This document shows positions 36,445 to 46,505 of a stretch of 64,000 nt of DNA, piece by piece (the first letter of the stretch is position 1; the number at the start of each line of letters is the position of its first letter). The translations under genes and the position numbers were made by a program. Source of the DNA: an uncultured delta proteobacterium. GTDB lineage: Bacteria > Desulfobacterota > Binatia > UBA9968. The stretch is taken from positions 96,001-160,000 of the forward strand of contig CAVWLW010000024.1 of assembly GCA_963755715.1 (NCBI GenBank), read 5' to 3'. The notes under the pieces are model-generated. The model was not told the DNA's origin and ran no database searches. It worked only from the letters and a program-made list of their open reading frames with translations.

Positions 36445-36477
36445 GAGCTTCTCCGCGGCGTTGAAGAAATTTGACCT

Positions 36478-36547
36478 CACCACGAAGGTCACGAAGGAAT
36501 TCAGGCATAATAATTTTTACCTTCGTGTCCTTCGTACCTTCGTGGTG
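36478..36547. repeat. REP-like palindrome, 'cacgaag' family
   Basis: caccacgaaggtcacgaagg...ccttcgtgtccttcgtaccttcgtggtg. Confidence 0.88.
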
Positions 36548-36586
36548 AATCCTGTTGTTTTTTAGTTGCGGCAGTGCCGCGCTGGG

Positions 36587-37631: not shown

Positions 37632-39113
37632 TTATTGCGAACCCGATGCCGGTGCCAAAAGAGGCCCGCCGGCGCGTTTGCTCGCGGCAACAAATGATTC
37701 GGTGGCTTTGGTTATGACTTCTTCGGCGTCGAGCGCGGTGAGTTCGCCTTTGTGCTTGAGGATTCGGCCGTCGATGATCACCGTATCGACGTTGTACGGT
37801 TGCGCTTGCTGGACGAGGAGCAGCGCAGGATTGAAAAACGGCGCGACGTTAAGGTCATTGGTTCGGACTAGGATCAAATCGGCGCGTTTGCCGGGCGTGA
37901 GTGAGCCGACGCGGTCGGCAATGCCCAAGTCTCTGGCCCCGTCGATGGTGGCCAATTCCAAAATTCGCCGCGGCTGTACTTCCATCACGTCCATGGAGCG
38001 CAAATGATTGAGCTGGAGCATGAGGCGCATGATGCTGAACATGTCGGCGTTGCCGCCGACCGTGGTCGTGTCGACGGACAAGCTGCATTGCACGCCACGC
38101 TTGAGAAGGTCGCCGAGATAGGGGAGACCCGAGGCCAGGCGCGAAGCGGTGAACGGCGCTATGCTGTTGTGAGTTTGAGTTTCGGCCATCATGCCACGTT
38201 CTTCCGGCGAGGCATTGTAGGTGTGAATGAGCTGCACATCCGGACCGAGCAGCTTGTCTTTATATAAGATTTCGATGCGGTGGAATTTTTTGATCTCGGC
38301 GATGGAACGACCGGCGTGTTGGGTGATCGGCAATCCCAAAGCTCGCGCACTCTCCCACTCTTTGCGATAGGTCGACGGCGGCGTGTCGCCGGGACCGCGC
38401 GACGCGAAGCCCATGGTGAGCAGACCATCATTCGATGCGCCGAACCATTCGCGCTTCACGCGCGCGATGTCATCGAAATCAGTGGTTTGCTCGGGCTTTT
38501 GCTGCAGATTGCGGCTGAAACCGTAGGAAAATCGCGCGCGAATGCCGCAATCGCGCAGCGCGCGCAGGTCGGCGTCGGCGTAAGCGCCGGAAATGATGTT
38601 GTGCGACCAGTCATGAATCGTCGTCAGGCCGGAGTTGATCGCCTCGGTGATGCCTAACTTGGCGCTGTTGTATGCGTCTTCCGGCGTCATGACAGGGCCG
38701 AGCCGGCTCATCACCGGGAAATAATCGAAATCACCGTCGGCGACGATGCCGCGAGCGAAACTACCCCAAAGATGAAAGTGGGTGTCGACGAAACCCGGTA
38801 AAGCAAGCCGATTGCGGCCGTCGATTTCTTCGGCGCCGGGCGCATTGAGCTTTGGGCCGACGGCGACTAAGGCGCCGTTACGGACGTGAACGTCGCCGTT
38901 GGGAATATCGCCCAACTTGTTGTCCATCGTCACCACGTAGGCGTTGCGCACGACGAACTCGCCGCGTGACGGCAGCTTTCCTGAACCACGCTCCGATGTC
39001 GATAGTCGTGCGCTTTGCGGTGAATTTGCCGCACAGGCGGAAAGTCCCACGGCGCCGAGGGCGGCGACCGCCTCGATAAAATTACGCCGGCTTATTTTGT
39101 TCGCTTTAGCCAC
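37632..39113 (-). CDS. Amidohydrolase/deaminase family protein with Tat lipoprotein signal
   Basis: SRRNFI...GLSAC; PGFVDTHFH, SVDT, GSLTPGKRADL. Confidence 0.88.
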   Translation of the reverse strand: MAKANKISRRNFIEAVAALGAVGLSACAANSPQSARLSTSERGSGKLPSRGEFVVRNAYVVTMDNKLGDIPNGDVHVRNGALVAVGPKLNAPGAEEIDGRNRLALPGFVDTHFHLWGSFARGIVADGDFDYFPVMSRLGPVMTPEDAYNSAKLGITEAINSGLTTIHDWSHNIISGAYADADLRALRDCGIRARFSYGFSRNLQQKPEQTTDFDDIARVKREWFGASNDGLLTMGFASRGPGDTPPSTYRKEWESARALGLPITQHAGRSIAEIKKFHRIEILYKDKLLGPDVQLIHTYNASPEERGMMAETQTHNSIAPFTASRLASGLPYLGDLLKRGVQCSLSVDTTTVGGNADMFSIMRLMLQLNHLRSMDVMEVQPRRILELATIDGARDLGIADRVGSLTPGKRADLILVRTNDLNVAPFFNPALLLVQQAQPYNVDTVIIDGRILKHKGELTALDAEEVITKATESFVAASKRAGGPLLAPASGSQ

Positions 39114-40814: not shown

Positions 40815-41813
40815 ATGGCGAAAAATATTTTTGTGAGCCTGATCTGTCTTATCGGGTTTGGTTGCGTCAACCGCGCCGACGGGCAAACGACCAAGCTCGT
40901 GGTCGCCTACGCCTCTCCCGCCGCGACGTTTTGTCCCGGCGTAATCGCCAAGCGCGAAGGACTGTTTGCGCGCTACGGTCTAGACGTCGAGATGGTGCTG
41001 ATGCAGGGCGCGTCGACCTATATGCCGGCGCTGGCGAACGGCAATATCCAGGTTCTCTACGGCGGCGGCACGGCGGTGTCGCGGGCGATCGCGACGGGCG
41101 GCTTCGATTTCGTCGTGATTGCCACAGAGACCCGCTACGTGCCTTTGCGCATGATGGTCAATGCCTCGATTCAGACGCCGGCTCAGCTCAAGGGAAAACG
41201 ACTCGGCGCGGGACAGGCCGGCCTAGATGAGTACGCGACGATCTTGTATCTGGAAAAGATTGGCATGACGCCGAACAAGGATGTGCAAATCGTCTATCTC
41301 GCCGGCGGCGTGCCGAGCCGCGCAGCGGCGATGAAACAAGGCCTGATCGACGGTGTCGCGGTGAATCCGCCCAATGAATATGAGCTCGAAAAGGCCGGCT
41401 ATCGCGAGCTTGCCAACTTTCTCGACTTCAAGATGCCCTACGCCGGCGTGCCGCATACCGTGAGCCGCGCATTTCGGGATAAGAACCGCAAAGTGGTCGA
41501 GGATTATATGACCGCAATCGTGGAAGGGATTCAAATCTTTCGCACGAACAGGCAGGCGGCCTATCGTGCGATCTTCGAGCTAACCCGGCAGAAAGATCCG
41601 GTGCTGCTCGAACGCACTTATGATTCGTATGCGAAACAATACGATGCGATCGGCGGCATACCGATCCCTTGGGAAGCCGGTATCGAGAGCATGATCACCG
41701 GCTTTCACGAGCGCTTCAATCCCCAGGGAATAAAAAATCGCGACGCCAAGCCCTATCTCGATCCAACCTTCGTGCAGAAGGCGGTGGAGCGATTGAAGCT
41801 GGGCAAGAAATAA
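40815..41813 (+). CDS. Orphan NMT1/SsuA-type ABC substrate-binding protein
   Basis: GLFARYGLDVE, QLKGKRLG, GMTPNKDV. Confidence 0.9.
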   Translation: MAKNIFVSLICLIGFGCVNRADGQTTKLVVAYASPAATFCPGVIAKREGLFARYGLDVEMVLMQGASTYMPALANGNIQVLYGGGTAVSRAIATGGFDFVVIATETRYVPLRMMVNASIQTPAQLKGKRLGAGQAGLDEYATILYLEKIGMTPNKDVQIVYLAGGVPSRAAAMKQGLIDGVAVNPPNEYELEKAGYRELANFLDFKMPYAGVPHTVSRAFRDKNRKVVEDYMTAIVEGIQIFRTNRQAAYRAIFELTRQKDPVLLERTYDSYAKQYDAIGGIPIPWEAGIESMITGFHERFNPQGIKNRDAKPYLDPTFVQKAVERLKLGKK

Positions 41814-42224
41814 GCTGCGCGCCAGAGCCGCAACCAAAAGAAAACAACACGATTCACCACGAAGGCACGAAGGTTTTGATAGTTTTAACTGCTAACTTCG
41901 TGCTCATTACTATAGTTAAAAATTTGCGCGGCCTGCGCAAATAATCTGGCATCGAAAGTACTCGGAGTCGGGAATTCCTCCCGCCAAGGCGCAAAGGCGC
42001 CAAAGGTTATGGGGAAAGGACAAAAACTCTTATAAATGATTTTCACCCTCAATCTCCGAACTTTGCGCCCTTTGCGTCTTTGCGGGAGATACTCCGAGTT
42101 TCGGTTGCGGCTCAGCCGCGCTGGGACCTTCGTGGTTAGATCGAAATCTCCTGTAGAATTGCCAGCGTACCTTTGGAGCCCTGGAAAATTTGCGCACGCC
42201 GTGAAAACTTTCAACCATAGCAAT
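41814..42224 (+). mobile_element. Older outer copy of the hairpin-ended non-autonomous element, with a cacgaag palindrome as cargo
   Basis: Left end gctgcgcgccagagccgcaaccaaaa (21/26 to the inner element's end); right end atttgcgcacgccgtgaaaactttcaaccatagcaat (30/37). Confidence 0.7.
41906..42124 (-). mobile_element. 219-bp non-autonomous element inserted in a cacgaag palindrome
   Basis: Reverse complement nearly identical to 46197-46411 (1 substitution, 4 nt of indels). Confidence 0.88.
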
Positions 42225-42242
42225 GCAAAGTGCGCAAAAGGT

Positions 42243-42266
42243 GTAGGGGCGACCGGCTGGTCGCCC
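42243..42266 (+). repeat. GTAG-type REP hairpin
   Basis: GTAG running into the stem-loop gggcgacc-ggct-ggtcgccc, the layout of RAYT-associated REPs. Confidence 0.75.
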
Positions 42267-42327
42267 TTCGGTTCGGATGCCGTGCGAATGTTGTAGGGAC
42301 CGTCGTGACCGCGGCTCAACAATTCAA

Positions 42328-43323
42328 TCAGCGCTTCTTGTAGAGCCCGTCGACGTAGCCGCTTTGATCCAACTCTCTGATAAAGCTCGAATCGACGAAG
42401 TCTTCCGGCTTGCCGGGCTTGCCTTTTAACTCCGTGTTCAGAATCGTCTTGATGCCTTCGAGAGAGGGATACTGTTTTTTTGGCAAGACTTGCTCGTTGA
42501 GAAGATTTTCCCAGGTTTTCTCGAGCACGTCGCGGTCGACGTTGCGGCCGATAAAACGCCCCAACGCTTTTATCGCGCCTTCTTTGTCCGTGTAAATCCG
42601 ATGCACGGCTTCCACTTGTGATTTAACGTAGCGGCGCACGATGTCGGGATGTTCGCGAATATATTTCCGCGTCGCCGCCACGGCGGTGTGTTGGTAAACC
42701 AGACCGAGCTTGGGAAGATCGGCGAGAACCGTCATGCCTCGCTTCTGGGCGATAATGCTCGCCGGCGGATTGACTACGGTCGCTTGCACGCGCCCTGCCA
42801 GTGTGGCGTCGACGCGCGCCGTGGTGCTGCCGATCTGGACGATCGTCACGTCTTTGCCCGGTGTCAAGCCGACTTTTTGCAAGGCATAGCGGGCGATGAA
42901 ATCAGACGACGAGCCGAAGCGGCTGATCGCCACCGAGCCGCCTTTGAGTTGCTCTGGGCTTTTGATTTCCGGGCGGCCGAGCAAATAATAATTGAGCGAG
43001 GTCACGCCACCGGCAATCAGCGCGGCATCGGAGCCAGCCATGACGGAGTTGATCACGGCTGCGCCGGCCAGTTGCGCGATCGGCGTGTCGGCGGAAACCA
43101 GCGCCATGACCGCGGTGGTGCCGCCGGTGAAAAAAACCAACTGAACATCGAGGCCGTTCTTTTCAAATATCCCGGTGTCCTTGGCGAGCCAGGCCGGCAG
43201 GGCGTCGCCGCTGATGGCGCTGTAGCCGACGCTGATTCGGGTCATTTGGGCGTAGCTTAAACCGGTCGAAAAGACGGCGGCTAACAAAAAACAAATCGTC
43301 AACGGCGTTTTTCCCTTGAGCAT
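42328..43323 (-). CDS. Orphan NMT1/SsuA-type ABC substrate-binding protein
   Basis: GIFEKNGLDVQ, LKGGSVAISRFGSSSD, GLTPGKDV. Confidence 0.9.
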   Translation of the reverse strand: MLKGKTPLTICFLLAAVFSTGLSYAQMTRISVGYSAISGDALPAWLAKDTGIFEKNGLDVQLVFFTGGTTAVMALVSADTPIAQLAGAAVINSVMAGSDAALIAGGVTSLNYYLLGRPEIKSPEQLKGGSVAISRFGSSSDFIARYALQKVGLTPGKDVTIVQIGSTTARVDATLAGRVQATVVNPPASIIAQKRGMTVLADLPKLGLVYQHTAVAATRKYIREHPDIVRRYVKSQVEAVHRIYTDKEGAIKALGRFIGRNVDRDVLEKTWENLLNEQVLPKKQYPSLEGIKTILNTELKGKPGKPEDFVDSSFIRELDQSGYVDGLYKKR

Positions 43324-43478
43324 CGAACGATCCTTTCCTCTGTCTGACGATAGGATTTGGTGATACGATTTCAACATCGATGGGGTGACGGAGAAGCGAT
43401 CCGGCTGTTTGCTTTATCCGGTGACCCTAGCTACAAAATAAGGCTACCTACCTATACCTGATAATAAGGAGCGGTCCA

Positions 43479-46172
<2,694 letters not shown>

Positions 46173-46183
46173 ATTACAGAAGT

Positions 46184-46476
46184 CACCACGAAGGACCCAG
46201 AGCGGCTGAGCCGCAACCGAAACTCGGAGTATCTCCCGCAAAGACGCAAAGGGCGCAAAGTTCGGAGATTGAGGGTGAAAATCATTTATAAGAGTTTTTG
46301 TCCTTTCCCCATAACCTTGGCGCCTTTCCTTGGCGGGAGGAATTCCCGACTCCGAGTACTTTCGATGCCAGATTATTTGCGCAGGCCGCGCAAATTTTTA
46401 ACTATAGTAATACGAAGAGCACGAAGGTTTAAGATATCAAACTCTTAAACTTCGTGACCTTCGTGCCTTCGTGGTG
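46184..46476. repeat. cacgaag REP-like palindrome interrupted by a 215-bp element
   Basis: Removing 46197-46411 restores caccacgaag-gacacgaag-agcacgaagg...ttcgtgaccttcgtgccttcgtggtg. Confidence 0.88.
46197..46411 (+). mobile_element. 215-bp non-autonomous element (hairpin ends, cgcaaag palindrome cargo)
   Basis: Second copy of 41906-42124; no terminal inverted repeats, no target duplication. Confidence 0.88.
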
Positions 46477-46505
46477 AAAAAATCTTTCGCAATCGCACAA
46501 ATTTC

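Follow-up and report, generated by a model that had tools for sequence, protein, structure and literature searches.

The window, the whole stretch of DNA analysed here, comprises 64,000 nucleotides of an uncultured soil bacterium of the Binatia (G000:C24:96001-160000); G000, the metagenome-assembled genome (MAG) to which it belongs, measures 7.4 Mb in 76 contigs and is 93.6% complete. A gap of 514 bp between two convergent open reading frames (ORFs), 40815-41813 (+) and 42328-43377 (-), holds a pair of gene-less elements nested one within the other. They are non-autonomous copies, similar to miniature inverted-repeat transposable elements (MITEs), of an undescribed insertion-sequence family, which is described here with its left end (LE), its right end (RE), its target, an insertion polymorphism and its autonomous copies. 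The single ORF of the autonomous copies encodes a protein with a predicted TBP-like double lobe and a winged helix, and the favoured reading, to which a probability of about 0.6 is given, is that this protein is a Rep_trans-like tyrosine transposase by which the MITEs are moved in trans.

The nested pair and its empty allele

A repeat search of the gap found two pairs of complementary arms, 41817-41839 with 42099-42121 (23 nt, 87%) and 41905-41942 with 42188-42225 (38 nt, 82%). Their order, A, B, A', B', indicates an element within an element of opposite orientation and not a single large inverted repeat. Profiles of the two ends, from which the outer copy itself had been left out, recovered the outer LE at E=0.0014 genome-wide and the outer RE only at E=7.4; the two lie on one strand with 406 nt between them, and the outer copy minus its 219-bp insert measures 192 bp, the other 19 paired copies of the genome spanning 183-231 bp. 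A preliminary description, made from the sequence of the window, had held that diverged copies of both ends enclose the inner element in opposite orientation, that the outer copy carries a cacgaag palindrome and the inner one a different palindrome, and that a cut cgcaaag arm and then a GTAG-type repetitive extragenic palindrome (REP) stand beside the outer copy. The repeat search and the end profiles place both elements accordingly, the cargo of the outer copy is a cacgaag-word hairpin that is host to the inner insert, the cargo of the inner copy is a cgcaaag-word hairpin, and the cut arm was seen with the REPs beyond it.

The insertion of the inner copy is recorded by an empty allele in soil-metagenome contigs. 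Position 41905 is joined to 42125 in X1 (1296 nt, with one other letter) and X2 (672 nt), and contig X4 makes the same join with only 21 nt on one side. Exactly 219 nt (41906-42124) are omitted and TTCGT stands there instead; the three-unit arm is intact and the outer element whole, which shows that the outer copy came first and the inner insertion later. The inner copy is a recent insertion. No contig among those listed bridges the filled junctions 41905/41906 and 42124/42125, the contigs ending at the repeat, and many short contigs pile onto the 219-bp part, where the depth is summed over contigs and gives no copy number. In the orthologous intergenic region of genome G001, the flanks of which are 96% identical, the DNA is rearranged and no clean empty site was found. 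The absence of TTCGT from the filled left junction (window 41900-41906) amounts to a loss of 5 bp at the presumed cleavage site; it is seen in the MAG alone and may be a small deletion that froze the inner copy.

Four members of the family were located in the window (Table 1), namely the nested pair, the copy at 46197-46411 (-) and an LE-less member at 36477-36585. The outer RE directly adjoins the stop codon (41811-41813) with which the upstream ORF ends, and no matching half arm is present there. Two GTAG-type REP hairpins (GTAGGGGCGACC.. and GTAGGGACCG..) adjoin the nested pair at window positions 42241-42318, and the one 514-bp gap thus holds three repeat systems. An Rfam search of 41500-42700 returned only a chance-level miRNA match (E=0.18).

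Table 1. Members of the family and their parts in the window (^ marks the insertion point)
Feature	Position	Strand	Evidence or detail
Inner non-autonomous element, 219 bp, gene-less, young cgcaaag-cargo subfamily	41906..42124	+	ATTACTATAG... to ...GCGCTGG; eight near-identical copies in G000
Inner LE: conserved tip, then small hairpin TTTGCGC / GCGCAAA	41906..41945	+	LE profile E=1.9e-17; copy alignment
Inner cargo hairpin: tandem cgcaaag-type words as arms, 55-nt loop	41971..42095	+	Repeat search, arms 41971-42005 / 42061-42095
Inner RE, GC hairpin GCGGC-TCA-GCCGC five nt from the tip	42099..42124	+	RE profile E=3.2e-12; 20-nt core in at least 119 stretches of other genomes
Outer, older element, LE at the 42224 side, RE at the 41814 side	41814..42224	-	411 bp with insert, 192 bp without; intact in the empty allele of X1 and X2
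Outer cargo hairpin, part 1: cacgaag arm 41853-41875, loop, first opposite-arm units up to the insertion point	41853..41905	+	
Outer cargo hairpin, final arm unit GACCTTCGTGG..., split off by the inner element	42125..42139	+	Directly follows 41905 (+TTCGT) where the insert is absent
Half arm of a cgcaaag/ctttgc-word palindrome adjoining the outer LE; remnant of the outer element's target	42225..42240	+	5' flank ...ctttgc^ fits the YTNNG(T/C)^ rule
Second young-subfamily copy, 215 bp, within a solitary cacgaag palindrome, 46183-46478	46197..46411	-	
LE-less family member: cacgaag hairpin, spacer, RE	36477..36585	+	

Anatomy, distribution and target of the family

With BLAST and nhmmer 20 paired LE..RE elements were found in G000. 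At E<0.01, an RE partner lies 100-500 nt downstream on the same strand of 20 of the 25 LE matches, and 21 of the 25 RE matches have an LE partner; the two ends were thus not found scattered independently without a bracketed palindrome, the outcome that the preliminary description had named as fatal to its proposal. Another 32 elements with constant ends and an exchangeable hairpin come from other genomes, giving a set of 52 with both ends, drawn from several hundred matches listed. The proposed plan of constant ends around a variable palindromic cassette is supported by these elements.

In every element of G000 the LE consists of the conserved tip A-C/T-T-A-C-T-A-T and a short hairpin ending GCGCAAAT. 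It is followed by a linker and a long hairpin with arms of about three tandem 7-9-nt words, then by a spacer of 15-20 nt and the RE hairpin GCGGC-N3-GCCGC, five nt from the tip. The family has no terminal inverted repeats. Gene-less copies keep some 45 nt at the LE and some 40 nt at the RE, on either side of a hairpin; as in MITEs, they are short (183-231 bp), have no coding capacity, occur in 20 paired copies in G000 and have the LE tip, the RE core and the CTTCGT^G target in common with the autonomous copies of L143, L090, L083 and G019 described below.

The young 219-bp subfamily comprises 8 copies, 92-100% alike, with the cargo word cgcaaag, and the older subfamilies carry cacgaag or cgcggag/cacagag. 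A non-repeat hairpin serves as cargo in L065, L088 and L107, and the cargo is nearly nil in L078 (111 bp) and L095 (138 bp). Both cargo and host hairpins are heptamer-array ('stutter') palindromes, in which tandem 7-9-nt words recur in inverted order across a loop. The cargo had earlier been called a REP; it is indeed an exchangeable hairpin, but the label fails, since these word arrays lack the GTAG tag. Membership of the REP/RAYT (REPIN) system was rejected on the same ground, the true GTAG REPs lying beside the elements at 42241-42318. Autonomous copies do without the cargo hairpin, which in gene-less ones may simply hold the two ends close to each other or steady a single strand. Read-through capture, insertion of the palindrome itself and recombination between nested copies were weighed as its origin.

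Some copies depart from this plan. LE-less copies occur on C64 and C7 as well as at 36477-36585, and L181 is a tandem array of at least 3 units of about 34 nt, each with an RE core and a gatttcgtgc word, which might reflect repeated termination or re-initiation at the RE. The LE-less copies and this array would fit end skipping, an idea offered only as a lead. At C50:26759-27119 of G000 two members stand back to back with one palindromic LE hairpin in common, and their outer flanks are both gctctctg(c/t)ggt.aa arms in inverted order.

The 219-bp element matches 23 of the 24 other genomes of the genus, all five of the sister family (weakly, E~1e-8) and none of 11 genomes of a third family; these tallies include the unpublished genome G005, on which by itself no conclusion depends. 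Among GTDB species genomes at least 119 stretches contain the 20-nt RE core, with a rough chance expectation of about four matches in 596 Gb. Among the matches listed its carriers are Binatia, Acidobacteriota, Verrucomicrobiota, Planctomycetota, Hydrogenedentota, Kiritimatiellia, Lentisphaerota and Desulfobacterota-type MAGs; several matches lie on contigs of 0.27-3.6 Mb, and short contigs may have been assigned to the wrong bin. Nearly every match is set in the order word arm, spacer, RE and then G with a word, and a few in coding-like DNA (for example L113, L145, L163, L179) look like chance. In L143, a 2.2-kb contig binned with an Acidobacteriota MAG, an LE stretch of about 60 nt is identical to that of the Binatia copies L183/L189/L192 of G019, and the elements themselves are near-identical, which reflects either recent cross-phylum transfer or mis-binning.

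In the 52 elements the 5' flank ends YTNNGT, most commonly CTTCGT, and the 3' flank begins with G, followed by the remaining word arm ending GGTGAA or GGTTAA. Insertion is orientation-specific and separates the T from the G in a CTTCGT^G-like unit (YTNNGT^G). The same host word stands on either side of the insert, and the element has therefore entered a single arm of a heptamer-array palindrome. Young-subfamily copies, themselves 92-100% alike, lie in host palindromes with unlike loops, from which it follows that these were independent insertions; and the three copies of G019 stand after the first or second arm unit, so that insertion is tied to the unit rather than to one place in the palindrome. 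The autonomous copy L189 of G019 stands in the context ...CACGAAGGAC^element^ACGAAGG..., and the orthologous site of G000 (C8, about 37758-37768) is empty and reads ...CACGAAGGAC+ATGAAG..., with neither duplication nor loss. No target duplication was found at either of the two sites for which an empty allele is available.

Nesting was found again at C33:363363-363571 of G000 and in L069, L082 and L109. It recurs because the elements insert into word hairpins and carry one, as had been anticipated in the statement that they both spread and target these repeats, each insertion making a new target. Words in tandem array were counted in G000 as follows: CACGAAG 141, CGTTCAA 51, CGCAAAG 38, CACTCCA and TACTCCA 18 each; the hosts of the elements follow this order of abundance. 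Palindromes of the same kind also serve as arms of small gene cassettes, since the three best-matching 23S_rRNA_IVP (four-helix-bundle) genes of G000 are each bracketed by heptamer/octamer palindromes with a word of their own (gggtaagg, agtcctgag and ggcaatag types). These loci are C34:108440-109454, C29:15062-16076 and C14:35505-36521; two of the genes are full-length and one, of 94 aa, is cut short.

Autonomous copies and their protein

In L143, L090 and L083 the LE and the RE downstream of it are 1679-1688 nt apart, and between them lies a single ORF of 525-529 aa on the opposite strand, read from RE to LE, that starts about 45 nt inside the RE end and stops just before the LE hairpin. These three copies stand in cacgaag arms after CTTCGT, as the MITEs do. 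Genome G019 carries the intact element three times, in identical form and at separate loci, always after CTTCGT, and G017 has one diverged copy with recognisable ends. The search for a protein family co-occurring with the ends, which the preliminary description had recommended, thus led to an ORF of about 527 aa between the same ends. The protein profile matches 6 of the 24 genomes of the genus, with the three copies in G019, one in G017, a distant one in G012 and only fragments in G003, G004 and G009; it matches none of the 11 genomes of the third family. A remnant of the RE with the first codons of the ORF is present in G000 at C33:182780-182852.

The protein has many homologues. Of the 8,000 candidates scored, 6,722 reach E<=1e-3; they are mostly 525-528 aa long, none with a Pfam domain, all named 'hypothetical' and many on element-sized contigs of 1.7-2.2 kb, and 6,423 protein clusters at 50% identity have E<=1e-3. 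Distant homologues (25-29% identity) on Paraburkholderia, Burkholderia and Rhodococcus plasmids are labelled ArsR-type regulator or hypothetical. One of these, 29% identical and labelled 'ArsR family transcriptional regulator', lies on the Paraburkholderia plasmid L195 (2211-6006) between two ORFs labelled c-type cytochromes, and may be an insertion that splits or separates the cytochrome ORFs.

Searches with the protein found no Pfam or NCBIfam family, giving weak winged-helix matches at the C-terminus only; a profile search of PDB sequences gave 0 matches, PHROGs matched the winged helix only and the ESM Atlas returned 'hypothetical protein' clusters only. The AlphaFold2 model has a mean confidence (pLDDT) of 89.4 over the whole protein, in which residues 15-402 are predicted to form a two-lobed sheet-and-helix saddle and residues 402-527 a MarR-like winged helix (Z ~9). 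A VIA search with the whole model was dominated by winged-helix proteins, and the domain was therefore folded alone (residues 15-402, pLDDT 94.4, pTM 0.90). With this domain model Foldseek placed chains of the rolling-circle initiator 4cij at ranks 1, 2, 4 and 5 (E 1.1e-3 to 2.3e-3). Among the 48,161 chains compared by VIA-align, TBPs reached Z 8.1 (181 aligned residues, root-mean-square deviation (rmsd) 4.1), 7.9 and 7.2, and the Rep_trans proteins 4cwc_A (RepDE) and 4cij_A both reached Z 6.9 (178 aligned, rmsd 4.9, and 187 aligned, rmsd 4.5, respectively). Only the TBPs, 4cwc_A and 4cij_A combined Z>6.5 with about 175 or more aligned residues over both lobes; nearly all lower rows (Z<=6.3) were shorter and mostly covered one lobe. 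The matches in BFVD were giant-virus TBPs and inovirus Rep proteins including A0A345MNV4. By its model, then, the protein belongs to the fold class of a TBP-like double lobe with a winged helix.

Rep_trans enzymes have the TBP fold, A0A345MNV4 is named as a Rep_trans initiator, and the archaeal Rep-Arvir combines a TBP-like domain with a winged helix and is not recognisable by sequence (PMC13107129). The catalytic tyrosine of Rep_trans enzymes lies inside the beta sheet, with a D,D,E metal site, a motif III of the form YxK.. and a motif IV [W/L]xRxE (PMC5714925). In an alignment of 44 diverse members of the present family, down to 28% identity, the residues D34, R35, E126, Y155, Y157, N183, N204, E261, Y334, R341 and E343 are invariant (44/44), D265 and K332 are kept in 43/44 and K336 in 39/44, all on predicted strands; no histidine pair is invariant. 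Y334-x-K336 and R341-x-E343, within the candidate stretch N-S-x-K-x-Y-D-K ... L-R-x-E, fall on adjacent predicted strands, and D34, E126 and E261 are invariant.

Weighing of the mechanism and comparison with known systems

Several results weigh against a Rep_trans-like transposase. None of the 44 members has a Pfam match to Rep_trans or to any other family of the N-terminal domain at E<=5. The structural scores are middling, best Z values of 7-8 being common for models without true relatives, and TBP, a non-enzyme, outscores the Rep proteins; Y334 and the acidic residues are only candidate counterparts of the Rep_trans active site. The protein was not found by profile search in G000, itself 93.6% complete, nor in any of the five genomes of family f2 that still match the 219-bp element. 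Finally, the inner copy of G000 lacks at its left junction the TTCGT that is kept in 7 other copies and in the empty allele.

Another explanation takes the ORF for a mobility enzyme of another chemistry, a metal-dependent nuclease or strand transferase without a covalent tyrosine or a new site-specific recombinase of double-stranded DNA, the TBP saddle merely gripping DNA. The higher score of TBP, the invariant D/E residues, which alone could form a nuclease site, and the lack of a sequence-level link to Rep_trans speak for this explanation, yet three tyrosines are invariant in 44/44 members, one of them in a Y-x-K followed by R-x-E as in motifs III and IV of Rep_trans, and oriented, duplication-free insertion beside an end hairpin is typical of single-strand systems that nick by means of a tyrosine. 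It is considered unlikely.

A slightly smaller chance is allowed for ends that are substrates of the IS200/IS605 type (HUH Y1) or of a RAYT/TIRYT, moved by a Y1 transposase of the host, with the ORF as a passenger or winged-helix regulator. Elements of IS200/IS605 lack inverted repeats, have hairpins at their ends and insert 3' of a specific sequence. The anatomy seen here is of that kind, without inverted repeats, with hairpins near the ends and with duplication-free insertion 3' of a short specific sequence; G000 has 9 Y1_Tnp matches, gene-less copies are still present in genomes in which no such ORF was detected, and a distant homologue bears the RefSeq label 'ArsR family transcriptional regulator'. 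Against it, no Y1 gene lies between the ends of L143, L090, L083, the three G019 copies or that of G017, where the single ORF fills the element; the best IS200-type gene of G000 (L001) is without such ends; and fourteen strand residues, three tyrosines and four acidic residues among them, that are invariant or nearly so in 44 sequences exceed what a regulator would need. TnpB (PF07282) was not found in G000.

It is improbable that targeting is guided by the nucleic acid of the element, through the cargo hairpin or through pairing of the LE tip with the target. The preliminary description had speculated that the cargo acts as a guide and had suggested a check for covariation of cargo type with target type. 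No such covariation was found: cargo and host words are unrelated, being equal in 11 of 37 cases, and the similarity of cargo and host within own pairs was 8.74 against 8.89 for within-group permutations, 423 of 500 permutations being at least as high. The cargo as an identity guide was rejected on these two results. For the LE tip, the last target base and LE base 4 were T/A 28, C/G 3, T/G 1, C/A 2 and A/A 1 times (n=35), and with identical pairs collapsed their covariation gave a Fisher p=0.016, but it derives from three elements. LE base 4 was G rather than A in 3 of 5 elements with targets ending in C (ctttgc, ccttgc) versus 1 of 29 with targets ending in T. The LE tip may pair with the target; elements of IS200/IS605 read theirs by pairing with LE DNA.

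A very improbable alternative is that the nesting arose through faulty assembly of the metagenome, or through recombination between repeats, instead of by insertion. In its favour are the nature of the genome as a MAG, the filled junctions, across which none of the listed contigs runs, and the missing TTCGT on the left; against it, the skipped stretch is the exact 219-bp unit defined from 7 other loci, like nesting occurs at C33:363363-363571 and, from other assemblies, in L069, L082 and L109, and a mis-join through shared words would have retained TTCGT.

On the preferred reading, that of a Rep_trans-like transposase, we infer the role of the ORF, its chemistry and a single-strand or rolling-circle route. 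The protein would act in the manner of the rolling-circle initiators of the Rep_trans group, with the HUH transposases of IS200/IS605 and IS91 as an analogy. A strand-borne tyrosine, most likely Y334, and a metal held by D34, E126, E261 and E343 would nick one strand at both junctions, at the LE following CTTCGT and at the RE following ...GCTGG, and the strand would be rejoined at a new CTTCGT^G site. Recognition would come from the RE hairpin and the winged helix, and the route may be excision of a single-strand circle, as in IS200/IS605, or rolling-circle copy-out, as in IS91. Gene-less copies would be moved in trans by the protein of autonomous copies, and because a target-type hairpin is carried along each insertion would supply a new target, with nesting such as that at 41814-42224 as the outcome.

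No transposase of Rep_trans or TBP fold was found in the literature searched (few subscription journals, no supplements), and none is named in the accessible parts of PMC13107129 and PMC5714925, the latter listing HUH enzymes only among its transposases. What is new here is the 1.7-kb autonomous copies and a large unannotated insertion-sequence family with the ends and target of the MITEs; the enzyme class is probably new for transposons. It is tempting to propose, at somewhat under even odds, that this is the first transposon family with a Rep_trans-like tyrosine endonuclease of TBP fold, a transposase class to stand beside the DDE, DEDD, HUH, serine, tyrosine-recombinase and Cas1 types, and that the family, very common among soil bacteria from several phyla, is specialised on heptamer-array palindromes and a possible engine of their spread and of word turnover, with target reading possibly by pairing of the LE tip. 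If the ORF is a transposase, rolling-circle enzymes have been recruited twice, once as HUH proteins (IS91, IS200/IS605, Helitrons) and once from the unrelated Rep_trans/TBP fold, and a soil-metagenome family of thousands of clusters labelled 'hypothetical' or 'ArsR-type regulator' would receive a function. The heptamer-array palindromes, unexplained in the literature, would gain a handle in an element with exact borders, a natural empty allele and a candidate enzyme, and for tool builders a compact enzyme that places DNA into a 7-nt site, making no duplication, could be of interest.

Among known systems, IS200/IS605 and its palindrome-associated and miniature derivatives (PATEs/MITEs) are similar in the absence of terminal inverted repeats, the end hairpins and the oriented insertion after a short specific sequence without duplication; insertion 3' of a specific 4-5-nt sequence, with neither duplication nor inverted repeats, was found here too. 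Gene-less derivatives of IS200/IS605 are likewise short copies built around palindromes (PMC6006769). The present autonomous copies differ in having no HUH Y1 enzyme, their sole ORF being TBP-like without His-hydrophobic-His among its invariant residues. Membership was rejected, as this ORF belongs to no Pfam/NCBIfam family (Y1 = PF01797) and has no invariant His pair. IS91, ISCR and Helitrons likewise lack inverted repeats, make no duplication and have one end with a hairpin set a few nt inwards, and they encode a relative of the rolling-circle replication initiators, as the present family is proposed to do (PMC5714925). Their HUH tyrosine, however, is on a helix and the present candidate tyrosine on a strand of a TBP-like sheet; membership of IS91/Helitron was rejected, no HUH family being matched and the fold being TBP-like.

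The Rep_trans (PF02486) and Rep-Arvir proteins are alike in the TBP-like domain with a winged helix, the candidate Y-x-K and R-x-E on strands and the invariant acidic residues (PMC13107129), and Rep_trans also in that its enzymes nick one strand at a specific site in or next to a hairpin, forming a 5'-phosphotyrosine link, a hairpin standing here too beside the presumed site of action. Unlike them, the present protein has no sequence match to Rep_trans, a larger domain (about 390 aa) and a C-terminal winged helix, and it occurs in a 1.7-kb insertion sequence of the chromosome that has MITEs rather than in a plasmid, phage or conjugative element.

The REP-targeting insertion sequences ISPpu9, ISPpu10, ISPa11, ISPsy8, ISRm19 and ISRm22 show the same high selectivity for abundant intergenic palindromes (Tobes and Pareja 2006, PMC1525189), whereas the present targets are heptamer-array palindromes and not GTAG-type REPs. 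ISPpu9 is an element of the IS110 family (10.1101/2025.01.17.633520); membership of IS110/IS1111 was rejected, no DEDD Pfam match (PF01548/PF02371) being found and hhalign against the IS110 transposase of G000 (L011:913-1950) giving a probability of 0.2%. The inverted heptamer-repeat arrays of Rehm et al. (2015, PMC4692102) have, like those described here, arms of 2-3 tandem 7-9-nt words in inverted order and several word families per genome. In the accessible part of that work the palindromes stand alone, whereas here a bounded element both carries and enters them.

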